Source: Acaryochloris marina MBIC11017
Lineage (GTDB): Bacteria; Cyanobacteriota; Cyanobacteriia; Thermosynechococcales; Thermosynechococcaceae
NCBI RefSeq assembly: GCF_000018105.1
Contig: NC_009925.1
Location: forward strand, 5,700,001-5,732,000
Reading direction: 5' to 3'
Length of the DNA stretch: 32,000 nt
Shown: positions 1 to 22,635 of the stretch, piece after piece
How positions within the stretch are numbered: position 1 is the stretch's first letter
Layout: each line of letters starts with the position of its first letter
The notes under the pieces: model-generated
The model's input: the letters and a program-made list of their open reading frames with translations, nothing else
What the model was told of the DNA's origin: nothing
Database searches by the model: none
Position numbers and translations under genes: made by a program

Positions 1-807
1 GCCTGATAGTAATTTATGAAATGAGACAGTCTCAAATGCTTTGGGATGGTTGCGAAAATTGAGCAGCATTTGGACATCTGCATTCCCAGTATTGGTGCGA
101 ATATAGCCCCCAAAATTAGGTCGAATTCGAGGAATCTCCGCAGACTTAAATCTCATGGCTACGGGATCATTGATGCCATTATCTAGATGGATATTTTGGG
201 CAATTAGAAATTTCTCGGCTAGGAGTAATGCTAGGGAGTATCGGAAGACTTGTTTTTTCGTTTGAGTTCCCAGCATGACCCGACGTTGGCTACCGTCCAG
301 ATCGACAGGGGCATCAGCAAATCCAACTCGGTCTAGGGGTAAGCCGGGGGGAGGATTCACTCGTTCCGATTGGTTCTCATCCAGTTCTTTCTTATTCTCA
401 TCCAGAATTTTATCGATACCAAATAGATTTTCCATCTCCTGAAAGGCGGTGGCCAAGTCTGCTGAACCCGGTTCTACGGGGATATCTCGGAATAAATCCA
501 GACCAATTGCTCTAGGCTCATGCTCTTGAAGAATGTTGAGCGACTGGGCGAGGTATTGATCGGGAATGGGATAGCGGCCAATCGAGCGAATACTATCCTC
601 ATCAATCGTGACCAACAGAATGCGTTTGTCTTGGGTTTCTGTCGGTTGATATTTCAGAAAGAGATCTAAGACTTGCAATTCCCAGGATTGGAAGGTTCCT
701 GCCCATCGTCCACCGAGGATTAGGCCCAGTATAAGTAAGCTGGGGAGCGCCACAAGCTTCAGTGGGGCTAATGGTTGACGAAGTTTATGCCAAATCTCAG
801 ACTTCAA
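1..807 (-). CDS. CHASE2-domain sensor protein, N-terminal part (gene continues beyond the left edge)
   Basis: This ORF is absent from the ORF track because it has no stop in the window. I translated the minus strand from TTG 807..805, which has AAGGGGA 6 nt upstream and an in-frame TAA two codons upstream. The product is MKSEIWHKLRQPLAPLKLVALPSLLILGLILGGRWAGTFQSWELQVLDLFLKYQPTETQDKRILLVTIDEDSIRSIGRYPIPDQYLAQSLNILQEHEPRAIGLDLFRDIP... and stays open to base 1. It shows one N-terminal TM helix followed by the pattern I recognise from CHASE2 extracytoplasmic sensor modules. The output domain is off-window. Confidence 0.75.
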   Translation of the reverse strand, partial: MKSEIWHKLRQPLAPLKLVALPSLLILGLILGGRWAGTFQSWELQVLDLFLKYQPTETQDKRILLVTIDEDSIRSIGRYPIPDQYLAQSLNILQEHEPRAIGLDLFRDIPVEPGSADLATAFQEMENLFGIDKILDENKKELDENQSERVNPPPGLPLDRVGFADAPVDLDGSQRRVMLGTQTKKQVFRYSLALLLAEKFLIAQNIHLDNGINDPVAMRFKSAEIPRIRPNFGGYIRTNTGNADVQMLLNFRNHPKAFETVSFHKLLSG

Positions 808-895: not shown

Positions 896-964
896 ACCTG
901 AACGCTCTGATTATCAATACCTGAACTTTGGCTGAAGTTTCCTGATGATAACGGGATTTTTTCT
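896..964 (+). promoter_or_regulatory. Copy A of the phased CTGAA / CGGGATTTTTTCT cis-module, upstream of the small-ORF/DUF928/CHAT operon
   Basis: The sequence is ACCTGAA(896) ..ACCTGAA(919) ..CTGAA(932) ..CTGAT(942) ..CGGGATTTTTTCT(952-964). The last three elements are spaced exactly 10 nt apart. The CGGGATTTTTTCT 13-mer is identical to the one at 11513-11525. The module lies 55 nt upstream of ATG 1019. Confidence 0.6.
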
Positions 965-1018
965 GCCAACAAGCTCAATTAAGGTAATTTCAATAACCGA
1001 ATTACGGGGAGATCTGAT

Positions 1019-1201
1019 ATGCCTTCTGACTTTAGGTATGGAGAACCGATACACATTACACTGCCATCATTGTCATCAATGATGGCAGTGATAAAGGAGC
1101 AATTTCAGGAATGGGTCCGTCGAGAAATTATTGATTTTGACCCCTATGACGACGAAGGGGGATTAAGCAATTTTCCAGAAGAATTGAGAATAGATAAATA
1201 A
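1019..1201 (+). CDS. Small hypothetical protein (60 aa), first gene of the CHAT operon
   Basis: This is an ORF-track ORF. GGGGAG (1006-1011) lies 7 nt before the ATG. The gene sits just downstream of cis-module copy A and 13 nt upstream of the next ORF. I recognise no family. Confidence 0.5.
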   Translation: MPSDFRYGEPIHITLPSLSSMMAVIKEQFQEWVRREIIDFDPYDDEGGLSNFPEELRIDK

Positions 1202-1409: not shown

Positions 1410-2326
1410 GGTATGCACCTATGGTTATGGCTCATCTCAATCCAATTCATCTGCTGAAAAGGCGCCGGGGAGAAAGACAGAACGGCTTCAGCTATCGTTT
1501 CGGGCTAGGTCTATTGCTCGTGTCCCTGTCGATATTGCCTTCCCCCGCTTGGGCAAGACGATATCAGCCGCCCAAGGGTGATCCGCCGAAAGGTAAGTTT
1601 GGGTCCAATGGTTCTCGGGGTTGTAGTTCTGCCCCATCCAAGTCATCGGCTTTGAGTCGTCCAACGGTGCCAGAGCAAAATCATGCCCAGACGGCAGCGG
1701 CTCAGCCCAGCAGCATTCCCGTTACCCTGTTAGCTCCCAGTACTCATGTGGGGAGAACCAGTGTGGTGGCACCTACGCTGGCTTGGTTTGTAACGGCAAC
1801 GGATCCCTATCGCGTCAGAATTTCTCTATTTATTCTGGATGCGGATCAAAGTTCTGAACTGATCCATGAGTTGGAATATATCGAAACGTCTTCTGGACTG
1901 GTTCAATACACTGTGCCAGCGGACCAGACCACCCTTGAGGATGGCCAACGGTTTTTTGTGGAGTTGAGTATTGCCTGTAAACCGGATGACGATCGATTTA
2001 GTCCCCCCTTTGTGGCTGAAGTAGATGTTGATTTGCCGGATACTGCTTTAAAAAAGGCATTATCGAAAGCTGAGACGCCTAGTCAGAAAGCAGCGTTGTT
2101 TGCAAAAGCCGGTTATTGGTTTGATGCGGTTAGAGAGCTGTTATTGGAAGCCAATGAGTCCCAGTCATACCAAAAACTTCGGACCTTTCTGAAGGAACAA
2201 GCTCAGGCTGGTGAAGGGGAAAAGCATAGCCAGACATTGGTTAATATTGCTGATCAGCTAGAGGATACAAATCTAAAGTCTGTTGTGCGGCCTTTGGATA
2301 TGAACCCATCCCCCGCTACCCCTTGA
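1406..2326 (+). CDS. Secreted DUF928-like protein (family call tentative)
   Basis: This is an ORF-track ORF. The more likely start is ATG 1421, with GTGAGG 9 nt upstream. That start gives MVMAHLNPIHLLKRRRGERQNGFSYRFGLGLLLVSLSILPSPAWA, which looks like a signal peptide. It is followed by YQPPKGDPPKGKFGSNGSRG, which resembles the PP..G.P....GGGSRG N-terminal signature I associate with DUF928. The gene context (CHASE2 plus CHAT) matches the usual cyanobacterial DUF928 neighbourhood. Confidence 0.7.
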   Translation: MRYAPMVMAHLNPIHLLKRRRGERQNGFSYRFGLGLLLVSLSILPSPAWARRYQPPKGDPPKGKFGSNGSRGCSSAPSKSSALSRPTVPEQNHAQTAAAQPSSIPVTLLAPSTHVGRTSVVAPTLAWFVTATDPYRVRISLFILDADQSSELIHELEYIETSSGLVQYTVPADQTTLEDGQRFFVELSIACKPDDDRFSPPFVAEVDVDLPDTALKKALSKAETPSQKAALFAKAGYWFDAVRELLLEANESQSYQKLRTFLKEQAQAGEGEKHSQTLVNIADQLEDTNLKSVVRPLDMNPSPATP

Positions 2327-2378: not shown

Positions 2379-5300
2379 ATGAAAAGGATTGGGTGCGATC
2401 GCATCCTGATACAACATTGGGTAAGGCCAGCCATTGCTCCCCTGATGGGAGTGATTTTGAGTCCACTGATGTTCTCGAAAATGGTGTTGGCTCAACTAAT
2501 TGTCCCCGACAATACCTTGGGACCAGAACAGTCTGTTGTTGCCCCGGGCGCGACGGCTGACGAATTTTTTATCGATGGTGGGGCTCAGCGAAATACTGCC
2601 CTGTTCCATAGCTTTGAACGCTTTGGCATCAATCCCAATCAAACTGTTTTTTTCAGTAACCCGGCTATTGTCGAAAATATCTTTACCCGGGTGACCGGGG
2701 GGACGGCTTCCAACATTAATGGGTTGCTGGGTGTGGACGGTCCAGCTAATCTGTTTTTCGTCAATCCCAGTGGGATTTTGTTTGGCCCCAATGCTCAGTT
2801 GGATGTGGCAGGTGCATTTGTAGCCACTACGGCGGATCGATTTTTGCTGCCCAATGGTAATTCCTTTAATGCGGTGAATCCAAATGCGCCCCCGCTGCTG
2901 ACGGTTTCGGTACCCTTGGGGGTGCAGTTTGGCGCTACTCCTCAACCTATCTCAGTCAATGGTTCCACTCTAGAAACGGCCGTAGGAGAACCCTTCGCCT
3001 TGTTGGGGGGGCAGGTCAATCTCAATGGAGCTGAAATTTTGGCACCTGGAGGCCGGGTGGGTCTCAGTGGCCTGTCCCAACCTGACACTCTCCTTTTTGA
3101 TTTAGAAGCAGCAACACCTGATACTTTTCTGACTGTTCCGGTGGGGGGACGGTCTAATCTGACCCTCACTAATTCAACCATCGATACGGTAGAAGAGGGT
3201 GGGGGAGATATTGTCTTTGAGGCTGGGAATACCTCTCTCAATCAAACGAATCTATTCGTGGGGCTGAATGCGGATGTTGCTGATGTTAATGCCCAAGGTG
3301 GATCCGTTCTTCTGAATGGAACTGGGGATATTCAACTCATTGACAGTACTGTTCGAAGCTTGGTAGAAGATCTGGGGCAAGGTGAAACCGTCAGGATTAG
3401 CGGCCAGAATCTGACTCTGCAGGACAATTCTCAGATTTTGACGAGTACGTTAGGAGATAGCTCTAGTGGCGATATCCGCATTGATCTAACCAACCGTCTT
3501 CGCCTAGAGAGAGGGTCAGAAATTGTAAGCCAATCCTCAGCGGATGGGTTTATGAGTGATGCAGGATCTATCTTAATCAACGCACCTGATATTCGTCTTA
3601 GTTTCAGCTCTGGCATTAGCTCTGAGAGTGCTGGATCGGGAGGAGATATTCGTATTACGACGAATTCTCTTTGGGTTCGAGAGGAAAGTGGTATTAGCAC
3701 GAGAAAACTGGGACCGAATACCTCGGAGGGAGATATTCGCATTCAGGCCAATAGTATTTTGGTGGATGATCGAGGCGGACCCACGCTAGATCGATCGCCG
3801 ATTGGGATTACAACTAGTGTGACCTTCTTCCCTGAAGATTTAGGACTACCCCCTGAAACCCTGGGTGGAACAGGAGGAAACATCGAGATAGATACCCAGA
3901 ATCTGACCCTAATTGGTGGACTGATTGCTCCCGTTGTCTTTGGGAATGCCCAAGGGGGAGATCTGACGATTCGAGCTGGAGATACAGTCCAGTTAATTGG
4001 GGATCCAGCCGCAGCTCGAACGGACTTTGCTGGGGTGGCCGAGTTGTCCACTGCCATTCGGGATTCGACAACGGAGGGGTTTAGTGGCGATATACGCATC
4101 AATGCTCGCCATTTAATTCTGAGAGATGGTTCCATTATTGATGCTGGGGCTGAAGGGTTAGGCAATAGCGGCGATATCTTTATCAACACAACAGAGTCCG
4201 TGACCCTGCAAGGCACCTTGAATGGACAGCCCAGCCGGATTCTGACCCAATTGCAAAACCCTGGTCTGTTTGAAGGCGGCAATATCGATCTGGTAACTGG
4301 ACGGCTAACCATACAAGATGGTGGACAGATTTCAACCTCAACTACGACTAACTCGATTGGGAATGGGGGAGATATCTCAGTCGTTGCCAATCAAAGTGTT
4401 CTAATCACTGGTTCATCGCCTCGGGTGACATTACCTGCTGCTGATGCAGATTCCCCTTTTGTTCTGGATTCAACGAATACCCTATTCCCGAGCGGGATCT
4501 TTGCTACTGCACCCGGTGATGGGAATGCCGGTGGGATAGAAGTTGTTTCTCCCAATATCACCTTGAGAAATGGTGCTCAATTGTCAGTGAGCAGTAGGAA
4601 TGATGGCTCGGCAGGAAATTTATTTGTGCGTTCCAACAGGTTTGTATTGGATGATGCAGCCCTGTTAGCTGAGGCTGTGGAAGGGAATCAGGCGGATATT
4701 GGGTTGATCGTCAGGGATTCCTTGCAAATCCTGAATGGGAGTCGAATCTCAACGCTGGCTGGAGGGAATGCTGATGGCGGCAATATTGAATTAACAACGG
4801 GGCAGCTGACGATACGAGATGGAGGGCAGATCACGGCATCGACCACTGCTGATTCCGTTGGGAATGGCGGGATTGTAAGGGTGAATGCCAATCAAGGTAT
4901 TTCCATCACTGGCTCTATGCCATCTCCCACTGGGATTTTTACCAGCTCTTTAGGGGAAGGGGATGCCGGTGATGTGGAGATTGTGACCCCCACTTTAATG
5001 GTCAGTAATGGTGCTCAAGTTTCCGTGAGTAGTTCGGCGGGTGCTGCGGGATTTTTATCCATTGACGCCAACAAGGTTACCTTGGATAATTCCGCACTTC
5101 TGGCTGAGGCGGCTGACGGAAACCTGGCTGATATACGGCTATCCATTCGTGACTCACTGCAACTGCTCAAGGGGAGTCGGATTTCGACGGTGGCTGGGGG
5201 GAATGCGGATGGCGGCAATATTGAATTAACGACTGGGCAGCTGACGTTACGAGATGGGAGCCAGATTTTGGCATCGACGACTGCTGATTCAGTGGGAAAT

Positions 5301-8300
5301 GGTGGCGTTGTTCAAGTTAATGCTAATCAAGGTATTTTGATTACTGGTTCATCGCCAGTTCCCAGTGGAATTTTTGCTAGCTCTCTGGGAGAGGGAGATG
5401 CCGGCGATGTGGAGATTGTTACCCCCGCTTTAATGGTCAGTAATGGTGCTCAAATTTCGGTGAGCAGTGCGATGGGGGCTGCGGGCCTTTTATTTATTGA
5501 TGCCAACACCGTTGTTTTGGATAATGCTGGACTCCTGGCTGAGGCAGTGGAAGGGAATCTTGCCAATATCGAGCTGTCGGTTCGAGATTCATTGCAGCTT
5601 CTGAACGGAAGTCGGATCTCAACCGTTGCTAGTGGTGATGCGGATGGAGGCAATATCTTTATTGGCGGGACTGATACACAGCTACTGCGATTTTTAACCC
5701 TCCAAGGCGGTTCAATTATTTCTGCAGAAAATTCTGGTGGATTTGGTGATGGCGGAAGTATTGATATTAGTGCTCAGTTTATTATTGCTTTTCCCAGTGA
5801 ACTGAATCGCATTATTGCCAATGCCTTTGAGGGGGACGGAGGCGATATTGATATTTTTACGAATGCAATTTTTGGCCCACAGTTTCTCAACATCTCTGCA
5901 TCGTCGCAGTTAGGGTTGAATGGCGAGATTAATATTGAGACCATTGCTACGGATCCGGCGAGTGCCCTCAGTCAACTCCCCGAAAATGTGTTGGATTCAA
6001 GTACGCGAATTGCAGATGCTTGCGCTGTTCCGCGTACGGGGCAATCGCAATTTGTGGTGACGGGCCGAGGTGGGTTACCTCTGATGCCCTCCAGCCGACC
6101 CGCCGGGAGTTATCTGTTAGTGGATTTAGGTACTCAAGCACTTCCGGAGGTTACACCTGCTTTGCAAGAAGCGAAGCAGCTAGTGGTTACAGCCAGGGGA
6201 GACTATTACCTGCAGGGAGAATCGTCTCGTACCCTCCCCAAGCTGCTAGAAGAGGGTCGTCAAGCCTATCAACAGGCTAACTATGCCGATGCAGTTGTCC
6301 ACTGGACGCAAGCTGCAACTCAATTATCCAAACACCCTGATGCATATGCTTCAGTTCAGAGTCATTTAGCTTTGGCCTACCATTATCTAGGAGATTGGGA
6401 GCAGGCGAGAAGCGCGATAGAGTCTAGCCAAAGGGCATTGACCCCTGACCTCATAGCTGAGCAACCTGCTCTTCAGGCTCAGGTGCTAAGTGCAAGGGCG
6501 AGTTTATTCCTTGCTCGGGGTGATACTCGTAGCGCTCTGGAGGATTGGCAAGCGGCGGCGAATGCCTATCAACGGGCGGGGGATGATTCGGGTAACCTGC
6601 AGGTACAGTTGAATCAGATTCAGGTTCTCCAAGATCTGGGCTATTTGCGCCAAGCTCAACAGCAGCTCGTGCAACTGATGCAGATTCTAGAGCAACAGCC
6701 GCCGTCACCCGTAAAGGCGATGACTCAGTTGAATCTGGGGAAAGTGTCGCGGGCTGAAGGGAACATGTTGCGATCGCAACGCCAAATCGAAGCTGCTCTA
6801 AATACCGCTCAATCCCTCAACCAGCCAGCCCTAACCAGTACTATCCTTCTGAATTTAGGCCATACTTTTCGGGGACAGGGAAATACCCAGAAGGCTTTGG
6901 ATTACTATCAACAGGCCCTTGGAATTGCACCGACCCCTCTGATTCAATTTCAGGTGCAAGTGAGTCGGTTTGATCTGTTAGTTGCTCAAAAAAATCCTGC
7001 AACATCAGAGCTTTTGCAAGAGCTACAGGAGCAAACAGGATCGCTTCCCAGCAGTAGAGAGGGGATTTATGCACAACTCCACTTGATCGAAACGGTTCTG
7101 ACTGCGGCAAAGAAGGATGAGTCCTCGACTCTATTGGACTTACTGAACCGAGCACAAAGTCAAGCCCAAGGGTTAGATGATCCCAATGCTCAGTCTTACA
7201 TTCTGGGGTATCAGGGACGGATTTATGGTGAGGCTCAACAATGGTCCCAGGCGGTGTCTTTGACGGAGCAAGCCTTACAACATGTCCATCGGCAGCAATC
7301 TCCAGAAGTGCTGTATCAACTGGCTTGGCAATTGGGCCGCTATCGTCGCCAACTCGGCAATCGCCAAGGGGCAATTTCGGCCTATCTCGATGCTGTGGCA
7401 GCCCTGGACTCTTTACGAGGAGATCTCAAAACAGCGAGTGATGATGTTCGCTTTACCTTCAGAGATGGAGTAGAACCCGTCTATCGAGAGTTGGTGGGGC
7501 TGCTGCTAGAGGGGGATATGACCCAGGCAGATTCTTCGAGTAATCTAAGGCGTGCCCGCAAGCTCATCGAAAATTTGCAGCTCAATGAAATTCGAGACTA
7601 CTTTCAGGATGCTTGTGTGCAAGCCGAACCGCGAGAAGTGGATCAAGTGGATCCAAACGCAGCGGTCATTTATCCCATTGTTTTAGAGGATCGAGTCGAT
7701 GTAATTATCAGTATCGGTGATCAACCCCTGCGCCACTACAGTACGCCGATTGAGCCTGGACAAGTGGATGATACGGTGAAACAACTGTTGCGATCCCTAA
7801 CCACGCCCTTGGGGTCCGTTCAGAAGAAAAACCTCACTAAACTTAAGCAAATTTACGACTGGGTGGTAGAGCCAGCAGCTGCAGATCTAGCCCAACAGGA
7901 TGTGGAAACGTTGGTGTTTGTCGCCGATGGAGCCTTGCGCACCTTACCCTTGACCATGCTCTACGATGGCGAGCAATATTTGATTGAACAATATAATGTG
8001 GCGCTCTCCCCCGGTTTAGATCTATTAGCGCCTCGTCCCCAGGCGAGAGAAAAGGTAAAGCTGCTTGTGGGAGGCGTAAGTGAGGCTCGGTCTGGTTTCC
8101 CGGCTTTGCCCTATGTAGCCAAAGAAGTAGAGCAGATTACGTCACAGATTCAAGAACATGCTGTTCTGTTTAACCAAGATTTGACCCAACAGAATTTGAA
8201 GGATTACCTGACAGAAGTATCTTCTGAAGTGGTGCATTTGGCGACCCATGCTGAGTTTGGTGCTAGCCCTGAAGATACGTTTATTCTCACTTGGGAAGGG

Positions 8301-8657
8301 AGACTCTCGATTCAGGCGATGGCCTCTTTACTCCGAACTCGTATTCGCACGTCTGAGGTTCCCATTGATTTGCTCGTCTTGAGTGCTTGTGAAACGGCTA
8401 CGGGAAATAGTCGGGCGGTGCTTGGTATTGCCGGGATGGCGATTCGATCCGGCGTTCGTAGTACTTTGGCTGGCTTATGGGCGTTGGATGATCAGGCGGC
8501 TGCGGCGTTTATGGGGCATTTTTATAAAGCGTTGGCTCAACCCCATACCACGAAGGCCGCAGCGTTTCGTCAGGCCCAGTTGGCTTTGATGAAGGACCCA
8601 CAATTTAAAGCCCCCTATTTTTGGAGTCCATTTGTGCTGGTAGGTAACTGGCTGTGA
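2379..8657 (+). CDS. Giant two-partner-secretion-type exoprotein: TPS (haemagglutination activity) domain, beta-helical repeats, TPR repeats and C-terminal CHAT protease domain (2092 aa)
   Basis: The N-terminus has a signal-like segment followed by a TPS-domain signature: IDGGAQRNTALFHSFERFGINPNQTVFFSNPAIVENIFTRVTGGTASNINGLLGVDGPANLFFVNPSGILFGPNAQLDVAGAFVATTA. About 1100 aa of G/S/N/D-rich beta-helix-type repeats follow. The FVVTGRGGLPLMPS motif lies at about 6050-6090. TPR-like helical repeats span about 6250-7400. The C-terminal CHAT domain carries the caspase-like dyad His in VVHLATHAEF (codon 8247-8249) and Cys in LLVLSACETA (codon 8388-8390). Confidence 0.9.
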   Translation: MKRIGCDRILIQHWVRPAIAPLMGVILSPLMFSKMVLAQLIVPDNTLGPEQSVVAPGATADEFFIDGGAQRNTALFHSFERFGINPNQTVFFSNPAIVENIFTRVTGGTASNINGLLGVDGPANLFFVNPSGILFGPNAQLDVAGAFVATTADRFLLPNGNSFNAVNPNAPPLLTVSVPLGVQFGATPQPISVNGSTLETAVGEPFALLGGQVNLNGAEILAPGGRVGLSGLSQPDTLLFDLEAATPDTFLTVPVGGRSNLTLTNSTIDTVEEGGGDIVFEAGNTSLNQTNLFVGLNADVADVNAQGGSVLLNGTGDIQLIDSTVRSLVEDLGQGETVRISGQNLTLQDNSQILTSTLGDSSSGDIRIDLTNRLRLERGSEIVSQSSADGFMSDAGSILINAPDIRLSFSSGISSESAGSGGDIRITTNSLWVREESGISTRKLGPNTSEGDIRIQANSILVDDRGGPTLDRSPIGITTSVTFFPEDLGLPPETLGGTGGNIEIDTQNLTLIGGLIAPVVFGNAQGGDLTIRAGDTVQLIGDPAAARTDFAGVAELSTAIRDSTTEGFSGDIRINARHLILRDGSIIDAGAEGLGNSGDIFINTTESVTLQGTLNGQPSRILTQLQNPGLFEGGNIDLVTGRLTIQDGGQISTSTTTNSIGNGGDISVVANQSVLITGSSPRVTLPAADADSPFVLDSTNTLFPSGIFATAPGDGNAGGIEVVSPNITLRNGAQLSVSSRNDGSAGNLFVRSNRFVLDDAALLAEAVEGNQADIGLIVRDSLQILNGSRISTLAGGNADGGNIELTTGQLTIRDGGQITASTTADSVGNGGIVRVNANQGISITGSMPSPTGIFTSSLGEGDAGDVEIVTPTLMVSNGAQVSVSSSAGAAGFLSIDANKVTLDNSALLAEAADGNLADIRLSIRDSLQLLKGSRISTVAGGNADGGNIELTTGQLTLRDGSQILASTTADSVGNGGVVQVNANQGILITGSSPVPSGIFASSLGEGDAGDVEIVTPALMVSNGAQISVSSAMGAAGLLFIDANTVVLDNAGLLAEAVEGNLANIELSVRDSLQLLNGSRISTVASGDADGGNIFIGGTDTQLLRFLTLQGGSIISAENSGGFGDGGSIDISAQFIIAFPSELNRIIANAFEGDGGDIDIFTNAIFGPQFLNISASSQLGLNGEINIETIATDPASALSQLPENVLDSSTRIADACAVPRTGQSQFVVTGRGGLPLMPSSRPAGSYLLVDLGTQALPEVTPALQEAKQLVVTARGDYYLQGESSRTLPKLLEEGRQAYQQANYADAVVHWTQAATQLSKHPDAYASVQSHLALAYHYLGDWEQARSAIESSQRALTPDLIAEQPALQAQVLSARASLFLARGDTRSALEDWQAAANAYQRAGDDSGNLQVQLNQIQVLQDLGYLRQAQQQLVQLMQILEQQPPSPVKAMTQLNLGKVSRAEGNMLRSQRQIEAALNTAQSLNQPALTSTILLNLGHTFRGQGNTQKALDYYQQALGIAPTPLIQFQVQVSRFDLLVAQKNPATSELLQELQEQTGSLPSSREGIYAQLHLIETVLTAAKKDESSTLLDLLNRAQSQAQGLDDPNAQSYILGYQGRIYGEAQQWSQAVSLTEQALQHVHRQQSPEVLYQLAWQLGRYRRQLGNRQGAISAYLDAVAALDSLRGDLKTASDDVRFTFRDGVEPVYRELVGLLLEGDMTQADSSSNLRRARKLIENLQLNEIRDYFQDACVQAEPREVDQVDPNAAVIYPIVLEDRVDVIISIGDQPLRHYSTPIEPGQVDDTVKQLLRSLTTPLGSVQKKNLTKLKQIYDWVVEPAAADLAQQDVETLVFVADGALRTLPLTMLYDGEQYLIEQYNVALSPGLDLLAPRPQAREKVKLLVGGVSEARSGFPALPYVAKEVEQITSQIQEHAVLFNQDLTQQNLKDYLTEVSSEVVHLATHAEFGASPEDTFILTWEGRLSIQAMASLLRTRIRTSEVPIDLLVLSACETATGNSRAVLGIAGMAIRSGVRSTLAGLWALDDQAAAAFMGHFYKALAQPHTTKAAAFRQAQLALMKDPQFKAPYFWSPFVLVGNWL
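4662..5660 (+). repeat. In-frame tandem repeat of 435 nt (145 aa) inside the TPS-CHAT gene, about 2.3 high-identity copies
   Basis: The LLAEA(V/A)(E/D)GN.A(D/N)I motif recurs at 4662, 5097 and 5532, a period of exactly 435 nt. Long stretches are near-identical, for example GGNADGGNIELTTGQLT(I/L)RDG and GEGDAGDVEIVTP(T/A)LMVSNGAQ(V/I)SVSS. A more diverged copy precedes these at about 4230-4660. Confidence 0.9.
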
Positions 8658-8679
8658 TTTGGTCTGCTGATGGGCAATA

Positions 8680-15850: not shown

Positions 15851-16781
15851 CTGCATGGAAGGGATGGATGCAGGTCGCTATCAATCCAGGGCGTTTCAGC
15901 AGGCTAATTCATGGCTGGCGAATTTTTTTCCACCGCTTTCGGTAAGTTGATCATCTCTAGGAGGGTTCAGCATTTCTACCTATCGGTAGAGGCGATTCTT
16001 ATCACTCTTTTGTTTAGGTGGATATAGATCAGCCCCATGATTGGGTGGAGAGTATGTATAGCGCGATGGAGGCTCCAAGTTCTTTGGGTGAGGACTTATC
16101 GATTATGGCCCAATCAACCTCCGAACTATCGATGCTCGGAGGTGGTGAAAAGAGTCTTTTCCTCCTCCCTGTAAGAGAGCCAAGGATTTTACCTTGCTGT
16201 ATTCAAACGTATTGAATGTGCCTGTATGAGTTATTTTCGAAACTTTAGACGATTTTTTCAGCCATTGAGTCATCTTTGGCGTTGGTTGGCTTTGGCCGTA
16301 GCTACCGCTATTCTTTGCAGTAATTTTGTCTGGATATCAGCGGCCATGGGTCAAATTCCTGGTAGCTTCCTGCCATCGATATCAGGCCAGGCGAATTCGT
16401 CCGCCAATCCAATTAAGGGACTGAAACAAAATTCCTCACTGAATGAGGATTTTGTGGTTAAGGGTATTTATTTAGATGGTCGGCGAATGGTTGATATTGC
16501 CGTTCCAGCTTCGAAAGTCCAAAATGACTCATCGGAGGAAACTGAAGAGTCTACGACGTCCGTGTCAATTTCTAACCGGGCCGAAGTGATTCAAGATCGG
16601 TTGCAAGACTTAGCGCAAGATAATCTCAATCGCAGCTCTCTGACCGTTGATTTTCAAATAGATCCTGAAAACCAGTTGCCTCGAATCATGGTCAATGGGA
16701 GCTATTTGATGACGGTGACGACCAGCGATGCAGAGGTTCAAGGGGACAATCTAGTGCAGAGATCTGTAAATAGTTCATCAG

Positions 16782-17477
16782 CTATAGTCGAGGTTGGAAT
16801 CCCTTAAATTGCCATTGGAAAGGTTTGGCCATCGTGTGATTGAAATACTCAATAAATTCGAGGATGCGCTGTTGCAAATCATCCTTGGAGGTGAAATTGC
16901 CTCGACGAATCAATCGACGCACCAAAATACTAAACCAGCATTCAATCTGATTGAGCCAGGAGGTATGTTTGGGGATATAAACAAATCGGATCCGATGGCT
17001 GGGGTCGCTCAAGAAAGCTGTGCGAGTCTCCATCGATTTGAGAATACCGGATTGACCTTTAACACCTAACTCTGAATCCATACCGCAACAAGCAGCAACC
17101 CATCGCACCAAGGAAGCAGAGCGATGGGTATTGAGTTGGTCGAGTAGAAAAATCCATCCATCGTCCGGTGCTGTTTCAACGGTATTGGCAATATGATTGG
17201 CAAAGTCAAACTCTTTTCGAGTGGGTCCGATAGAAGGCGCAATCACCTTTCCCAGAGCCACGTGCCAGTTGGCAATCAAACTGAGGGTACCGTGCCGTTT
17301 ATATTCAAATTCCAAGCGACGTGGTTGCCCTGGTTTCATGGCTTGGTCTAGGTATAGTCGTTCAAGCGCTTGAATGCCCGTCATTTCATCCGTACTGACA
17401 AGGTGAATCTGTTGAGCTGCCAATTCAGCTGCTGAGTCATACAGTTGACAAATCTGACGCACTTTCGCCTCGAACAC
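16782..17477 (-). CDS. IS630-family transposase, DDE catalytic part (orfB, +1 frame relative to orfA)
   Basis: This is an ORF-track ORF of 231 aa. It contains LVSTDEMTGIQALER, WIFLLDQLNTHRS and HTSWLNQIECWFS, which is a DDE/Tc1-mariner-like signature. The frame stays open upstream to the orfA overlap (GEAQLQPHRSRYWLNANPEDPEVFEAK). Confidence 0.8.
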   Translation of the reverse strand: MFEAKVRQICQLYDSAAELAAQQIHLVSTDEMTGIQALERLYLDQAMKPGQPRRLEFEYKRHGTLSLIANWHVALGKVIAPSIGPTRKEFDFANHIANTVETAPDDGWIFLLDQLNTHRSASLVRWVAACCGMDSELGVKGQSGILKSMETRTAFLSDPSHRIRFVYIPKHTSWLNQIECWFSILVRRLIRRGNFTSKDDLQQRILEFIEYFNHTMAKPFQWQFKGFQPRL

Positions 17478-17493
17478 CTCTGGGTCCTCAGGG

Positions 17494-18030
17494 TTAGCAT
17501 TGAGCCAATAGCGACTCCGATGGGGCTGCAGCTGAGCCTCTCCCCAAAAAACGTCTCACACTGCTGGCCGACAGGTGAGGGACGATGCCGCGTTTAATCG
17601 CTTCATCAGCAATCTCTTCAGGTGTCCATTGACTCACAGGTCGGGCTGAGTCCTGGGGAGATTCACAGGCAATAGCCACAATTTGGATCACCTGCTCTGG
17701 GGTAAAGGTGGGTGGGACACCTGGACGCGGGGCATCTGTTAAAGCCTCCAACACTTGCTGGTGCAATTCTGTTTCGCTGTCGTCTACCTGCTCACAAAGG
17801 GCAAGACGCTCTTGATTATCAAGCCAGCGCTGACGCCAATAGCGAACTTGGTTGCGGTCGAGTTGCCATTGACGGCTAATCTGGGTGTTACTTTCGCCTG
17901 AGGCGGCTGATAGGATGATGCTTGCTCGACGTACCAAGCGATAAGGATTGGTGGTTTGTCGCACGATTTGGGTCAAACAATGGTGTTGTTGCTGCGATAG
18001 TTCGATTGGAGAAGCTTTGGGAGTTGGCAT
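17494..18030 (-). CDS. IS630-family transposase, N-terminal HTH part (orfA)
   Basis: This is an ORF-track ORF of 178 aa with helix-turn-helix regions. The expected ..FLGRAQLQPHRSRYWLN.. continuation is in the +1 frame, after a T6G4 run (plus-strand 17542-17551). Confidence 0.8.
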   Translation of the reverse strand: MPTPKASPIELSQQQHHCLTQIVRQTTNPYRLVRRASIILSAASGESNTQISRQWQLDRNQVRYWRQRWLDNQERLALCEQVDDSETELHQQVLEALTDAPRPGVPPTFTPEQVIQIVAIACESPQDSARPVSQWTPEEIADEAIKRGIVPHLSASSVRRFLGRGSAAAPSESLLAQC

Positions 18031-19173
18031 TGGCAGAAATCATATCTTGTGAAGAGGGTTTCTCTGACACTATCCGATTGATGACCAATCTTGTATAACT
18101 GCCGGATTATCTTCAAAATCTAGGACTAGAAACAGCGACTCAGGGAATCATTCAATCCATTAAGGATGGGCTTCAAAACTATAAGCGGGAACGTCAACCC
18201 GATTACCTAAGACGGCAAGGGTTGATTGCAGGTGGGCTCACCGTCGGATTGCTGGTATTGACGATTGGCATTAAGTATCGACAGCGACAACTTAAAGCTC
18301 GATACAAACAGATTTTGGCTGAGATTGAGAAGGCTGAGTCATTCGTAATTTCTTCTTCTGAATCAGATACCAATTCTAAGGAAACGTTATCTGAGCAGAG
18401 CAACGGGGTGGCCCAAAAGCAGCTTGCCAAACACAAAAGATTGAAAGTATGGATGGAACTTCGACAAAGATTATTGACGATTGGTCTGATTGGAATTTGG
18501 GCCGGAGGAGTGGCGTTAGTCTTGCGCCTTTTCCCCCAAACCCGGTGGCTGCAGTCATTGGTGTTGTCTGGTTTAGGGCAGGTACTCCTAAAAATTATTG
18601 TCATCCTAGTGGCGACCTATTGGGCGGTTCGGATCAGTTTTGTGTTGATCGATGGGATCTTCACTTTCTTGGGTCGAAGTAGTCTCCTCTCTTCTCCAGC
18701 CTCAGTGCGAAAACAGCAGCGGCTGCAAACGGTCGCAGGCATTGCTAAAGGAATTGTCACCATTTTGATGGGAATTATTGGATTCCTGATTGCGCTATCA
18801 ACCCTGGGAGTCAATATTGGTCCTTTGCTAACAGGAGTAGGGATTATAGGTGTGGCGATATCCTTGGGTGCTCAGAATTTAGTGAAGGATATGATTAATG
18901 GATTTTTTATCCTGCTGGAAGATCAGTTTAGTGTGGGGGATGTGATTACCATCGGGGATGCGTCGGGATTTGTCGAAAAAATGAATTTGCGCATTACTCA
19001 ATTGCGCAGTATTGACGGTGAATTAATTACGGTTCCAAACAGCAGTATTTCAGAAGTCAGAAATCATACGAATAAATGGTCTCGGGCCAACTTAGCGATC
19101 GCAGTTGGGTATCACACTGATCTGGATCAGGCGATTTCGATTATTGATGATGTTGCTCAAGAGATGGGTAGTC

Positions 19174-19566
19174 CTAGTCCTGTAAGGATGCATTGTAGTG
19201 ATGGACAAACATCCAGATTGCTCCAATATGATTCTCTAGCTTTTTCGAAAACGACAGTGTCTTTCGAACTAACCGAGACACTCGCTGGCGCATGGTGCAA
19301 TTAAATCGTTCAATGTAGCAGGTTTGGCCTGTTTCCTTGCCCACAGCTTGATGTCGTTGTTTGGGGAAAACACAGCCGTAGGCATCCCAAAAATCCGTGT
19401 AGGCAACCGCACATTGACGATAGATTCCTGGCAAGGAATTCCATAGCTGACGAGCACCTTGCTTGGAGCGTGCCCCCACATAAACACCGACTATCTCACG
19501 CGTGATGACATCAAGAGCAAGCCATATCCACTGTTTATTGCTCTTATCGTTCACAAATGACCACAT
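19174..19566 (-). CDS. insB: IS1-family InsB (DDE part), in the +1 frame relative to insA
   Basis: The product begins MWSFVNDKSNKQWIWLALDVITREIVGVYVG...YTDFWDAYG...IERFNCTMRQRVSRLVRKTLSFSKK, which is IS1 InsB-like. The frame is open upstream through an A8 run (plus-strand T8 at 19594-19601), giving ..KKGRLTLQCDEMWSF. Confidence 0.85.
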   Translation of the reverse strand: MWSFVNDKSNKQWIWLALDVITREIVGVYVGARSKQGARQLWNSLPGIYRQCAVAYTDFWDAYGCVFPKQRHQAVGKETGQTCYIERFNCTMRQRVSRLVRKTLSFSKKLENHIGAIWMFVHHYNASLQD

Positions 19567-19570
19567 TTCA

Positions 19571-19888
19571 TCACATTGAAGAGTTAATCGGCCTTTTTTT
19601 TGATGATATGTTCACAGTACGAGGCACTGCTTCATACTTACAGTTCACGTACTCTTGTAACCAGCTTTCAGAAACATCACAGACCCTGGCAATACCTGCC
19701 AGAGGTATCTTTTCAAGCAATAGCTTATCGATCAGGCCTTTAGTGGATGAATCAATTCGCTTTTGCTGAGGAGCTTCCACAAACTGACGACCACAGGTTT
19801 TACATTTGTGGTTTTGCTTGCCATTATGGATTCGACCGTTTTTGACAACGTTTTGAGAACGACAGTTAGGGCAGGTCAATGTCGACAT
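19571..19888 (-). CDS. insA: IS1-family InsA (zinc-ribbon / HTH)
   Basis: The product begins MSTLTCPNCRSQNVVKNGRIHNGKQNHKCKTCGRQFVE..., an InsA-type CxxC...CxxC ribbon. I use ATG 19888 because the ORF-track start 19966 lies outside the IS in mscS flank DNA. Confidence 0.85.
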   Translation of the reverse strand: MSTLTCPNCRSQNVVKNGRIHNGKQNHKCKTCGRQFVEAPQQKRIDSSTKGLIDKLLLEKIPLAGIARVCDVSESWLQEYVNCKYEAVPRTVNISSKKRPINSSM

Positions 19889-20350
19889 TTGTGATGCTGG
19901 ATTTTGGATGTTGGATATATCTATCCTTACATCTGGCGGACTACCCAAGAGATGAATCGGGTGCAACCCTGGCAGGACCTTATCTTAGAGCCTCCTACAG
20001 TATTGGGGGTGGATGAATTCAATGAAAATCATCTGACGATTCGGTTGTGGATTAAGACTAAGCCGTTGAAGCAGTGGGATGTGGCTCGAGAGTATCGCCG
20101 TCGCCTTAAGAATGCCTTTGATCGAGAAGGCATTTCTAATCCTCTCCCCCACCGAACGATTCAGATTGAGAGTGCAAGTGAACTAAGCAATCTCAATGGT
20201 CGTAAATAGACCTCTGACATAAATTACAAAGGGCGGTATGTATCGTTCTAGCCGATTTTTTAATCGTCCTCAAACGTATACCCAGGTACAGCCAGATATG
20301 ACAGGATTTACGATAATAGAAACGATGAATAATACCCTTTACAAACTTCC

Positions 20351-20944
20351 ATGAAATCTATCGCTGAACGCTATAAAAGTCTCGCCGGAGCTTATGTCAA
20401 ACTCTCTGACAAATTTCATCAGCTCGACGTGGCTCATATGAATCTCAAGGAAAAGCTGTTGCCTGCCGTTAAAGCTATCAACAGCTATCGTTCCTTAATC
20501 CAACAGCTTCAGCAGGATAAAGCCGAACTTGAGCGGACGGTTCAGACGCTCACAGAGCGACAGAAGTATTTGGAGGACAATCAGCTCACCCTGCAAGCGA
20601 AAGAGGTTGAGCTGTCGATGGCAGTCAATACCCTGACAAAGGAGAATACTGATTTACAGGTTGCCCTCCAAGACTTTCAGGCGAAGTACGAAGTGGTGTC
20701 TGGTTTTGAATCTCTATTAGCGTCTGAGCCTCAAGCCATGCTGACAGAGGCGGAACAGCAGATGGAACTAGTGGAAGAAACTCTGCAAGAGATCGCGCTC
20801 AACAGTGATCCTGACCTGAGCCAGGAAGAAAAAGAACTGATAGAGGCTTATCAAAAGGAAACCGAGAGTTTGTTTGGCTCTATGGAGCCTTTAAAGGACT
20901 GGGATTCTCCAGAAGTGCCAGAAGCGATACCCTGCGTTGCATAG
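20351..20944 (+). CDS. Hypothetical coiled-coil protein (197 aa)
   Basis: This is an ORF-track ORF. The sequence is heptad-like and rich in E, Q, L and K, for example LIQQLQQDKAELERTVQTLTERQKYLEDNQLTLQAKEVEL. The tail is acidic. I recognise no family. Confidence 0.6.
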   Translation: MKSIAERYKSLAGAYVKLSDKFHQLDVAHMNLKEKLLPAVKAINSYRSLIQQLQQDKAELERTVQTLTERQKYLEDNQLTLQAKEVELSMAVNTLTKENTDLQVALQDFQAKYEVVSGFESLLASEPQAMLTEAEQQMELVEETLQEIALNSDPDLSQEEKELIEAYQKETESLFGSMEPLKDWDSPEVPEAIPCVA

Positions 20945-20981
20945 GTGTAAATTTCTAAGGCGTTTTACTGTTATTTTGTAA

Positions 20982-21016
20982 CTCCCCTGCAGTTGACGAT
21001 GCGGGGGAGATTTTTG
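20982..21016 (+). terminator. Probable intrinsic terminator after the coiled-coil gene
   Basis: CTCCCCTGC (20982-20990) pairs with GCGGGGGAG (21001-21009), including one G-U pair. The loop is 10 nt. ATTTTTG follows. Confidence 0.6.
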
Positions 21017-21152
21017 ATGTGCGATCGCATGTTCAATACCGGGATGCGATCTCAACTTACAGGCTACTCAACCGACTTGGGGATAGAACAGACACAGGAC
21101 AAACGCATTGACAGAAATTACACCCAATGTTCAAGAGAGCTATCCCAACAGT

Positions 21153-22635
21153 CAATGGCACTGACTTAAGAAGTCAGGAAAAAGCTACAAGTCTTGATAG
21201 ATATAGGATCAAGACTTGCACGCCATAAACTTCTGCCTTTCACTATGTCTGAGTCAGCCGAAATTCTCAAGCAGCAATTTTCCCAAAGCCTGGGTTTACC
21301 GTGGACAGATATCCTTCCAGCCTCAAGGTTAGAGGAACTCCTGAAAGAAGAAGCATTCTCCTATCGCAACCGGATATATAGCCCCATCGTTACGCTGTGG
21401 GCCATGCTTTACCAAGTGCTATCAGCCGATAAAAGCCTTCGTAACACAGTCAAATGCATCACGACTTGGCTCACAGCGGCTGGCATCCAACCGCCCTCAT
21501 CTGATACCGGAGCCTACAGCAAAGCCAGAAGTCGCTTTCCAGAGTCACTGTTGCAACGTTTAATTCCCGAAAGCGCTGAGTGCTTAGCGCAACCCCTCTC
21601 CCCAGAGCACCTCTGGTGTGGTCGGCCCGTCAAGGTCTACGACGGAACCACCGTGTTGATGGCTGATAGTGCGGCCAACCAAGCATCATATCCACAACAT
21701 GGCAATCAAACAGCAGGCTGTGGTTTTCCCATCGCTCGCTTGGTAGTGTTCTTCTGCTTGGTTACCGGTGCAGTGGCGTCAGCTTGTATTGCCTCCTGGG
21801 ACACCAGTGAAATTGTCATGAGTCGTTTGCTCTATCAAGACCTTGAGGTCGGTGATGTGGTCATGGCGGACCAAGCTTATGGCAGCTATGTTGATCTAGC
21901 CATCATTCAACAACACAGGGCTGATGGAGTGTTGCGTAAACATCATGCTCGCAAGACTGATTTCCGCAAAGGCAACAAGCATGGCATTGGTGATCATCAG
22001 GTGACATGGCATAAGCCAGCCCAACGGCCTGAGCACATGAGTGAGCAAGATTTTGCCCTGATTCCTCAAACATTGGTCGTTAGAGAGGTGTGTTTGCGCT
22101 TATCCCTTAAGGGCTTTCGCGACCAGCACATTATTGTGGTGACGACGCTGCTGGATGCTCAACGCTACAGCGCTGGGCAACTGACTCGCTTGTATGGCTG
22201 GCGTTGGCCAGTGGCGGAAGTCAATCTGCGCCATCTCAAAACCACCTTAAAAATGGAGATGCTCAGTGCCAAAACTCCGGATATGGTGCGCAAGGACATT
22301 TGGGTACATTTGTTGGGCTATAACCTACTCAGAAGTCTCATGGAACTTGCGGCACCGCTAGCAGATAATGCTAGAACTCAACTGTCTGTGCAAGGAGCAC
22401 GACAACACTTCAATCAGATGCTTGCTTTGTTGGCGACAGCCAACCGTGCGACCAGAAAGCGGTTGTTTACTCATCTACTTGAGACCATGGCAGCCGATCT
22501 ATTACCCTCTCGACCGAATCGGCACGAACCGAGAGTCGTCAAACGCAGACCCAAATCTTTCCCGCGAATGCGACAACCTCGCTCTGCTCTCAAAGCTAAG
22601 CTAGCTGTTTGATTGAGCTTAAGTCAGTGCCATTG
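21153..22635 (+). mobile_element. IS4-family insertion sequence, 1483 bp, nested in the IS701-family element
   Basis: Perfect 18-bp terminal inverted repeats CAATGGCACTGACTTAAG lie at 21153-21170 and, as reverse complement, at 22618-22635. A perfect 11-bp target duplication ATCCCAACAGT lies at 21142-21152 and 22636-22646. The size of the duplication fits IS4. Confidence 0.92.
21194..22612 (+). CDS. IS4-family DDE transposase
   Basis: This is an ORF-track ORF whose 21194 start is a TTG. ATG 21245 (MSESAEILKQ..) is more likely. The N-terminal IS4-type region (RNRIYSPIVTLWAMLYQVL) precedes the DDE domain (VYDGTTV, VVMADQAYGSY, YGWRWPVAEVNLRHLKTTLKM). An 8-bp hairpin (GTCTTGAT/ATCAAGAC, 21191-21215) lies in the leader. 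Confidence 0.88.
   Translation: MIDIGSRLARHKLLPFTMSESAEILKQQFSQSLGLPWTDILPASRLEELLKEEAFSYRNRIYSPIVTLWAMLYQVLSADKSLRNTVKCITTWLTAAGIQPPSSDTGAYSKARSRFPESLLQRLIPESAECLAQPLSPEHLWCGRPVKVYDGTTVLMADSAANQASYPQHGNQTAGCGFPIARLVVFFCLVTGAVASACIASWDTSEIVMSRLLYQDLEVGDVVMADQAYGSYVDLAIIQQHRADGVLRKHHARKTDFRKGNKHGIGDHQVTWHKPAQRPEHMSEQDFALIPQTLVVREVCLRLSLKGFRDQHIIVVTTLLDAQRYSAGQLTRLYGWRWPVAEVNLRHLKTTLKMEMLSAKTPDMVRKDIWVHLLGYNLLRSLMELAAPLADNARTQLSVQGARQHFNQMLALLATANRATRKRLFTHLLETMAADLLPSRPNRHEPRVVKRRPKSFPRMRQPRSALKAKLAV

Follow-up and report, generated by a model that had tools for sequence, protein, structure and literature searches.

Why does the same short array of CTGA repeats stand before a CHAT-protease operon and before the HlyC and RTX genes next to it in the cyanobacterium Acaryochloris marina? 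The DNA analysed here, which we call the window, is the 32,000-nt stretch of A. marina MBIC11017 (NC_009925.1) from 5,700,001 to 5,732,000 of the forward strand. Coordinates below are window positions unless another locus is named, and L-numbers are labels of outside loci compared with the window. An earlier sequence-only reading had described 896–964 as the fourth copy of a module shared by the two loci and had proposed that they form one regulon, possibly fed by the adjacent CHASE2 sensor. Our analysis makes it fairly probable that 896–992 is the promoter and operator of the CHAT operon, that it belongs to an activator-dependent class of cyanobacterial promoters, and that the regulator encoded next door is its likeliest activator.

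Four copies of a CCTGAA module in the window

A pattern search of the whole window for exact CTGAW-N5-CTGAW-N5-CGGGATTTTWTCT returned four matches (932–964, 9797–9829, 10719–10751 and 11493–11525), all on the plus strand. No further match was seen in the window when up to three mismatches were allowed, and 100 dinucleotide-preserving shuffles gave zero matches. The 13-mer CGGGATTTTTTCT occurs exactly at 952–964 and at 11513–11525, the identity with the RTX copy that had been claimed for it, and with one mismatch at 9817 and 10739. An unprompted repeat search placed the same four stretches, in register, into one family (D14). Using a weight matrix trained on 28 cyanobacterial sites, all outside the window, copy 4 scored 44.6 bits and copies 1–3 scored 64–80 bits, against a maximum of 9.9 over 200 Markov shuffles, and no fifth site was found in the window. 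Both pattern and matrix thus uphold the sequence at 896–964 as a genuine and correctly oriented fourth copy before the CHAT operon, the other three serving HlyC-1, HlyC-2 and the RTX gene. The parts of the four copies are as follows.

896–902, plus strand: copy 4, distal box ACCTGAA (CTGA from 898), kept in four of four Acaryochloris orthologous intergenic regions, its flanks not kept
919–925, plus strand: copy 4, box ACCTGAA (CTGA from 921), A(C/T)CTGAA in the orthologues
932–936 and 942–946, plus strand: copy 4, proximal boxes CTGAA and CTGAT, 10 nt apart, the second 10 nt before CGGGA, identical in the orthologues but for one base
952–966, plus strand: copy 4, element CGGGATTTTTTCTGC, about -40 to -26 from the predicted start, in place of a -35 hexamer
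980–985, plus strand: copy 4, -10-like hexamer TAAGGT, TAATCT or TAATGT in the orthologues
992, plus strand: predicted transcription start of the CHAT operon, at the 'CA' of +39/+40, TTTCA kept in the orthologues
9795–9857, plus strand: copy 1, putative HlyC-1 promoter, with boxes 9795–9801 and 9805–9811, CGGGATTTTATCTAC at 9817–9831, GATAGT at 9845–9850 and predicted start 9857
10717–10779, plus strand: copy 2, putative HlyC-2 promoter, with boxes 10717–10723 and 10727–10733, CGGGA at 10739, GATAGT at 10767–10772 and predicted start 10779
11466–11553, plus strand: copy 3, putative RTX promoter, with boxes at 11466, 11479, 11491 and 11501, CGGGATTTTTTCTAC at 11513–11527, GATAGT at 11541–11546 and predicted start 11553

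In all four copies a -10-like hexamer starts at +28 from the C of CGGGA, TAAGGT in copy 4 and GATAGT in copies 1–3, so that the equivalent distance claimed for TAAGGT is exact. A "CA" is found at +39/+40 in each copy, and ATG 1019 lies 55 nt after position 964, as had been stated for the first start codon. The 10-nt phasing holds for 932, 942 and 952 but not for the boxes further upstream at 898 and 921, where the spacings (898, 921, 932) are 23 and 11 nt. An extra 'ctctgat' at 905–911 is not conserved in the orthologues. No sigma-70 consensus promoter with a -35 was detectable in 700–1300, and by direct reading the sequence 16–18 nt 5' of the -10 is TTTT(T/A)T in every copy.

We next give the architecture in positions counted from the predicted start, which puts the C of CGGGA at -40. 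Direct CCTGAA decamers, two to five of them, share one helix face, with boxes at about -82, -72, -60 and -50 (that is, -42, -32, -20 and -10 from CGGGA). The consensus is two 22-nt units (CCTGAATAAA-CCTGAACTTTT) and then CGGGATTTTT, which resembles a modified second decamer. The invariant CGGGATTTT(T/A)TCT(G/A)C spans -40 to -26, normally -35 territory, and a -10 hexamer nATAnT occupies -12 to -7. The CA is the predicted start of transcription; for copy 4 this would be position 992, with a leader of 27 nt before ORF1. We found what is expected of a sigma-70-type promoter, namely a -10 at fixed offset (A2, T6), a poor or absent -35 overlaid by the operator, and an intergenic, gene-oriented placement, and what is expected of phased direct repeats, CTGA at 932 and 942 and CGGGA at 952 being one helical turn apart. 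Because the boxes are phased, no -35 is detectable and the -10 is good, this layout is likely that of an activator-dependent promoter, by analogy with Pho boxes and tor boxes. The activator would oligomerise head-to-tail on the phased boxes, stand in for the -35 contact and bring in RNA polymerase with a group-1 or group-2 sigma factor where the promoter lacks a usable -35, and its effect would be activation rather than repression.

The Escherichia coli Pho box consists of tandem direct repeats (CTGTCAT-AAAT-CTGTCAC) on which the phosphorylated response regulator PhoB is bound head-to-tail. The module resembles it in that the repeats are phased at about one helical turn, abut or replace the -35 and are followed by a good -10, and the text of the Pho box is reminiscent of CCTGAAT-AAAC-CTGAAC in the module. 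However, the period of the module is 10 nt and not 11, up to five boxes are arranged in 22-nt pairs, and the invariant CGGGATTTTTTCTGC is added. We rejected the Pho regulon as an explanation, since no phosphate-acquisition genes lie downstream of the module. The torCAD promoter of E. coli carries four decameric direct repeats (CTGTTCATAT) and is controlled by TorR, a regulator of the OmpR family with a single operon as its target. Here too the repeats are direct decamers, the proximal one reaching the -35 region, and tor is under two-component control; the repeat sequence differs, and the module is found at dozens of promoters in many genomes. Among cyanobacteria, HLR1, (G/T)TTACA(T/A)(T/A)-N2-repeat, is the operator of the response regulator RpaB at many promoters. 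It is of the same direct-repeat type, but its sequence is unrelated and it has two repeats, compared with 2–5 boxes plus CGGGA in the module. Although rpaB lies within the window, HLR1 was rejected, as the boxes read CCTGAA(T/C) and the four copies contain no TTACA repeat. Nor are rpaB and the module recurrently linked in genomes.

The same letters could be read in another way, with CGGGATTTT as the extended -10 of a group-3 sigma factor (SigJ or SigF, 'J-Box'-like), CTGAA as its -35, and no activator needed. The J-Box of Nostoc punctiforme is GGGaAtacT (PMC6495340), and transcription from it begins some 10 nt from its centre. The GGGA core of the module resembles it, the first CTGAA lies 14–15 nt 5' of GGGAT, and SigJ regulons contain surface and secretion genes. 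On this reading the start would fall about 7 nt after GGGATTTTT (about +16), as opposed to +40, about 7 nt after nATAnT. However, the module has ATTTTT where the J-Box has its near-invariant A and 'tacT', and the element reads GGGATTTT(T/A)T. A J-Box also leaves unaccounted for the invariant A and T of nATAnT (+28 to +33), the conserved CA at +40 and the 2–5 phased boxes. We consider a group-3 sigma promoter improbable.

The element might instead work as RNA, the proximal CCTGA pairing with TCGGG before a T-run to give a terminator or attenuator hairpin or a leader structure. A terminator scan flagged 940–956 followed by TTTTTT, which we judged incidental, and copy 4 folds to -14.3 kcal/mol (z -4.3, 925–970). 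Copy 4 folds unusually well because TTGGC...GCCAA flanks its core; neither the orthologues nor the other copies have this outer stem, and the folding of copies 1–3 does not surpass that of shuffled sequence (z -0.4 to -1.2). The stem itself has only 4–5 pairs, including one G-U pair, and Rfam gave no match in the whole window. Copy 4 and several other sites stand between divergent genes, where a terminator would have nothing to act on, and the element sits 5' of the conserved -10. A function as RNA is therefore very improbable.

Known toxin operons of the hlyCABD type, in which HlyC acylates the RTX protoxin, are controlled by RfaH through the ops element (GGCGGTAG). The window is similar in having HlyC-family genes directly 5' of an RTX gene, and GGCGATAG in copies 1–3 resembles ops. 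It differs in having two HlyC paralogues, a module copy of its own for each gene, and no adjoining type I secretion genes in the window. We rejected RfaH ops/JUMPStart because GGCGATAG is confined to the Acaryochloris copies; elsewhere the corresponding positions read GCCATAGT, GAGATAAT, GGCATACT and similar sequences, with only nATAnT conserved across genomes.

The module in other cyanobacterial genomes

We scanned 185,579 genomes, one per species, with the pattern CTGAW-N5-CTGAW-N5-CGGGATTTT; the source genome of the window is not in this set. The scan gave 63 loci with 64 sites. Cyanobacteria account for 28 of the loci (29 sites), often with several per genome, and the other 35 sites are non-cyanobacterial. 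Three Acaryochloris metagenome-assembled genomes (MAGs) have 3–5 sites each; the other hosts are Adonisia, Leptothoe, several marine Leptolyngbyaceae-like MAGs, a Synechococcus-labelled MAG, Pseudanabaenales, Microcystaceae, Dapis and Xenococcaceae. A metagenome scan with the 33-nt pattern added 6 loci, all with the full module.

All cyanobacterial sites share a wider context, with CCTGAA boxes upstream and, downstream, TTCT(G/A)C, G +26, A +29, T +33 and CA +39/+40, whereas none of the 35 non-cyanobacterial sites carries it. A +29 and T +33 are present in 28 of 28 outside sites and A +40, after C or T, in 23 of the 28. Positions +9 to +14 (TTCTGC) are conserved in these 28 sites even though the search pattern did not demand them. 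Sites also differ in placement, since only 1 of 29 cyanobacterial sites lies inside a long open frame compared with 27 of 35 non-cyanobacterial ones. We take the 35 non-cyanobacterial sites to be chance background. By weight matrix, 63 sites of at least 25 bits are present among the loci examined, nearly all with a co-oriented open reading frame (ORF) 50–300 nt downstream. In total, at least 15 cyanobacterial genomes from at least 6 cyanobacterial lineages carry the module, at about 60 sites that are intergenic and point towards a gene.

Copy 4 itself has orthologues in three other Acaryochloris genomes (L008, L033 and L045), 5' of the same small-ORF/DUF928/TPS-CHAT operon. When these were compared with the window, conservation extended from ACCTGAAC (896) through the boxes, CGGGATTTTTTCTG, TAA(G/T)(G/C)T, TTTCA and the ribosome-binding site to the ATG, while the kinase-proximal half of the intergenic region could not be aligned. 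This pattern reads as a classical phylogenetic footprint. The module is likewise kept 5' of HlyC/RTX in other Acaryochloris genomes (L009, L039 and L058), with the CHAT and RTX loci still adjacent. The proposal that the two loci are tied together by a shared cis-element, and so by a common regulatory input, thus has good support from the sequence, and the same arrangement recurs in three other Acaryochloris genomes. Across genera, orthologous genes preceded by the module in different genomes include a rotamase (L054, L069), two small-protein families and DUF4278 proteins (four times).

One more alternative is that the copies are alike by chance, or are a dispersed mobile repeat similar to a miniature inverted-repeat transposable element, with no regulatory role. 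A single shared 13-mer in 32 kb is by itself not rare. Chance is opposed by the statistics of the full pattern and of the weight matrix; the strict intergenic, gene-oriented placement, the fixed offset to the -10 hexamer and the conservation at orthologous promoters across genera also contradict this alternative. Of the explanations weighed here we give this one the lowest probability.

The wider distribution changes what can be said of the window. The idea of a system private to two loci does not stand, because the module precedes dozens of other genes in at least six cyanobacterial lineages, and the window case is best read as one instance of a phylum-wide promoter class. Among the outcomes that the sequence-only reading had named as speaking against it, occurrence of the motif at many unrelated promoters is in part what we see; occurrence inside genes at background frequency is not. 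Genes that carry the shared module would be switched on together, which in the window means the CHAT operon, both HlyC genes and the RTX gene, and in this sense we infer co-expression of the two loci.

We also observed two decayed arrangements. At L039 5349 no HlyC follows a degenerate module (CATAATTTTTTTGG), and at L054 4588–4802 a 35-aa remnant of an HlyC N-terminus stands behind an intact module and is followed by the rotamase gene. This suggests turnover among the genes served by the module.

The candidate regulator

The gene divergent from copy 4 encodes a CHASE2 protein, an 805-aa histidine kinase, and a co-operonic 425-aa response regulator follows just past the start of the window. 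Its gene was located in L064 (AP026075.1), a near-identical genome in which the window start corresponds to position 8983 and which we used for gene calls and for the view of the left flank; L045 has the same arrangement.

6083–7360 of L064: response-regulator gene, just to the left of the window

The regulator has an N-terminal helix-turn-helix (HTH) domain (PF26355, HTH_VMAP-M9), a receiver with its phospho-acceptor Asp, a stalk helix and a degenerate GGDEF domain. In its AlphaFold model (pLDDT, the model's own confidence measure, 88) a five-helix N-terminal domain is followed by the receiver, a long stalk helix and then a GGDEF fold. Confidence is high for the receiver-stalk-GGDEF part, which matches the structures of WspR and PleD (E about 1e-25). 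Unlike WspR and PleD, the regulator's family has GTLTF or GTFTF in place of the GGDEF signature, and the regulator has an extra N-terminal HTH (PF26355); unlike PhoB, its HTH is helical and N-terminal, with no C-terminal winged helix. The GGDEF signature is degenerate in all 44 aligned members (A. marina has RYGTFTF), and there is no RxxD site. Conserved in the family are the acceptor Asp and a putative recognition helix, YS(A/P)KYVKQDVAPKLW.

Since the GGDEF signature is degenerate and the RxxD site is missing, synthesis of cyclic di-GMP is not expected, and we ruled out signalling by the neighbouring 'diguanylate cyclase' through cyclic di-GMP on the family-wide degeneracy. With the GGDEF domain catalytically dead across the family, the HTH would be the sole plausible output domain. 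The large family annotated as 'diguanylate cyclase/response regulator' with PF26355 therefore probably consists of transcription factors and not cyclases. Homologues are numerous, and among the best 120 matches all the named ones are cyanobacterial.

Orthologues of the regulator were first met beside the motif in L022 and L035, and for this reason eleven more were picked by protein similarity alone. All five with at least 62% identity (L067, L068, L069, L080 and L081) have 2–6 sites within 8 kb, scoring 29–76 bits, and the site nearest to a close orthologue is typically in the divergent upstream region or directly after the gene. Of the six with 51–60% identity (L070, L071, L072, L073, L082 and L083) none has a site within 8 kb, except for a weak 13.8-bit site in L072. 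This regulator is favoured mainly by a strong case of guilt by association, its close orthologues being flanked by sites, and on gene neighbourhood the likeliest activator would be the response regulator that follows the CHASE2 kinase. The chain would run from a signal at CHASE2 to the kinase, to the phosphorylated regulator and to the module. The suggestion that the CHASE2 sensor feeds the regulon gains circumstantial support here, because the kinase is co-operonic with the regulator and close orthologues lie amid motif sites in five other genomes.

The same promoter element could be controlled by a different transcription factor encoded elsewhere, the CHASE2 kinase, the HTH-receiver-GGDEF regulator and the dCache kinases being among the regulon's conserved members or targets. 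In L067 and L068 the gene of the dCache hybrid kinase is itself driven by the module, a weak site lies 5' of an HTH-receiver paralogue in L045, and the module drives a LuxR-type response regulator in L002 and L063. Thus signalling genes are clearly among the targets, and the distant regulator homologues that lack nearby sites fit this view as well. However, all five close orthologues have adjoining sites, often divergent upstream, which is the typical arrangement of a regulator and its target, and the regulator has an HTH while the only other candidate output domain is dead. The LuxR-type regulator is part of a gene cluster for a contractile injection system, with Pvc16 and AAA+ ATPase genes downstream and the sheath gene opposite, and looks like a local sub-regulator. 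We consider a factor encoded elsewhere unlikely, though a serious contender. The LuxR-type (REC-GerE) regulator was itself rejected as the primary regulator and treated as a target, because it occurs in the extracellular contractile injection system cluster and in two genomes only.

Several points weigh against the neighbouring regulator as activator and against the promoter reading as a whole. DNA binding by HTH_VMAP-M9 is putative. PF26355 was recovered from precomputed annotations but not by our local Pfam scan; the single-sequence model of the isolated HTH is poor (pLDDT 65), and a fold search with it gave only non-significant matches to sigma region 4. Although their recognition helix is similar, none of the six distant homologues has a site nearby, so adjacency could mean 'regulon member' and not 'regulator'. 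Acaryochloris has paralogues with the same HTH, namely P0035 and a 297-aa HTH-receiver protein in L045. Outside Acaryochloris the kinase adjoining the regulator is usually a dCache hybrid or a giant Pkinase-GAF-histidine kinase protein and not CHASE2. The species scan did not find the strict motif in standard model cyanobacteria, the proposed mechanism does not account for the invariant CGGGATTTTTTCTGC element, and the promoter reading is built throughout from sequence. A PDB sequence search with the N-terminal HTH also returned nothing meaningful.

The neighbourhoods of the regulator recurrently contain DUF928, CHASE2 kinases and TPS proteins, as well as HlyC with RTX (L072) and phage-tail-like genes (L081). 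In L072, a Prochloraceae MAG, a distant regulator homologue is divergent from HlyC and a 999-aa RTX gene (7107–9311), with no detectable CCTGAA boxes. The only match in L072 is a weak one at 16218 (CTTTTCGGGATTTTTTTTGCC, no boxes), 5' of the gene for an extracytoplasmic function (ECF) sigma factor. In L081, a Tara Oceans contig, phage-tail-like genes (gp19 tube, P2 gpI baseplate) flank the regulator/CHASE2/DUF928 neighbourhood at 1–2768 and 14533–17308.

Genes served by the module and the gene map of the window

The genes linked to the module include at least seven RTX proteins, HlyC genes and the DUF928-TPS/CHAT operon. Also among them are a cadherin/Big_9 protein, DUF4114 and DUF4329 proteins, an alpha carbonic anhydrase, PpiC-type rotamases (twice), fatty-acyl-AMP ligases with a carrier protein, a desaturase, an amine oxidase, a MatE transporter, DUF4278 proteins (four times) and two families of unannotated small proteins in different genera. 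Linked signalling genes are the dCache hybrid kinases and a LuxR-type regulator heading the Pvc16/AAA+ operon of a contractile injection system. The target set leans to secreted, surface and 'conflict' functions, yet is heterogeneous.

We would suggest, tentatively and with more doubt than belief, that one two-component pathway widespread in marine and benthic cyanobacteria jointly activates secreted and injected effectors. In such a pathway a regulator with a sigma-region-4-like HTH, a receiver and a dead GGDEF domain would act on CCTGAA decamers, its effectors would include HlyC-acylated RTX proteins, the TPS-secreted CHAT protease, cadherin-like proteins and contractile injection systems, and this 'conflict/secretion' regulon would be cued extracellularly via CHASE2 or dCache kinases.

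Full-text literature searches on the motif strings, on CCTGAA in cyanobacteria, on VMAP-M9, on DUF928/CHASE2/CHAT and on DUF4278 found no description of the motif or module, which apparently marks an undescribed regulon; the motif strings themselves turned up a single paper, on yeast and unrelated. A response-regulator operator built into a promoter is of a familiar kind; the element, its regulon and the architecture of the regulator appear to be new. To our knowledge very few regulons of non-model cyanobacteria have been defined through a cis-element, and we know of nothing reported on the control of CHAT proteases, DUF928/CHASE2 neighbourhoods, HlyC-associated RTX proteins or contractile injection systems in these organisms. 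The module offers a compact handle that can be searched for by sequence, predicts genes that would fire together and names a testable sensor-regulator pair. It also suggests a plausible DNA-binding job for HTH_VMAP-M9 and for a large family of 'diguanylate cyclases' unable to make cyclic di-GMP. If the reading is true, switching the regulon on or off would be a direct test of what secreted caspase-like proteases and acylated RTX proteins do in the physiology of cyanobacteria.

CHAT-protease genes stand beside motif sites far above expectation (L043, L052, L058, L009, L039, L057, L032 and L028). In Acaryochloris the usual order is the CHAT gene, the module and then an RTX, HlyC or DUF4329 gene, and CHAT-adjoining sites are also present in Adonisia, Dapis and Leptothoe. 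At L063 105–7300 the module is followed by the LuxR-type response regulator, a Pvc16_N protein and an AAA+ ATPase, and opposite them is a tail-sheath gene, an arrangement which suggests that the module controls an extracellular contractile injection system. The first small-protein family has 73–84 aa (...DLKY.ELEML...PYPW.P..P...ESQWL.LLRQL) and is encoded at L067 9449–9670, L069 11203–11454 and L068 12676–12930; the second has 57–90 aa (...GLD.LADYSEF...) and is encoded at L032 6088–6258 and L069 1684–1956.

The gene map of the window was made with Pfam and NCBIfam profile searches, and it agrees with the gene identities given in the sequence-only reading for pyrC (TIGR00856) and for CHASE2, DUF928, TPS...CHAT, the two HlyC and RTX (Pfam).

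1–807, minus strand: N-terminal part of the CHASE2-HisKA-HATPase histidine kinase (Pfam CHASE2), divergent from copy 4, the full operon being at L064 6083–9789 and also in L045
1019–8657, plus strand: operon served by copy 4, ORF1-ORF2-DUF928-TPS/CHAT
1019–1201, plus strand: ORF1, 60 aa (L064 gene calls), conserved in L008, L033 and L045
1215–1409, plus strand: ORF2, 64 aa (L064 gene calls), conserved in L008, L033 and L045
about 1421–2326, plus strand: DUF928 gene (Pfam)
2379–8657, plus strand: TPS-TPR-CHAT exoprotein, 2092 aa (Pfam)
8680–9717, minus strand: pyrC (TIGR00856 equivalog)
9926–15795, plus strand: genes served by copies 1–3, HlyC-1, HlyC-2 and RTX
9926–10564, plus strand: HlyC-1, HlyC-type acyltransferase (Pfam)
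10846–11379, plus strand: HlyC-2, HlyC-type acyltransferase (Pfam)
11420–11446: hairpin resembling an intrinsic terminator, 5' of copy 3
11591 (ATG, probable start) to 15795, plus strand: RTX protein gene (Pfam)
16782–23656: insertion-sequence cluster directly after the RTX locus (DDE_3 with HTH, IS1 InsA/InsB, two DDE_Tnp_1 transposases)
25710–27182: radA, divergent neighbour of rpaB
27341–28072: rpaB (NF045944 equivalog)
rest of the window: insertion sequences, MscS, radA, rpaB and others

The longest RTX ORF opens at TTG 11536, which is within the promoter module (-10 hexamer 11541–11546). The true start is almost certainly ATG 11591, which follows AAGGAG; the L009 orthologue begins MGRVVKK at the equivalent point. 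Within the window no type I secretion genes (ABC transporter, membrane fusion protein) were found adjoining the RTX gene. The rpaB gene is unrelated to the module and is a potential confounder when response regulators are sought in the window. HIP1 octamers (GCGATCGC), a cyanobacterial signature, are present.

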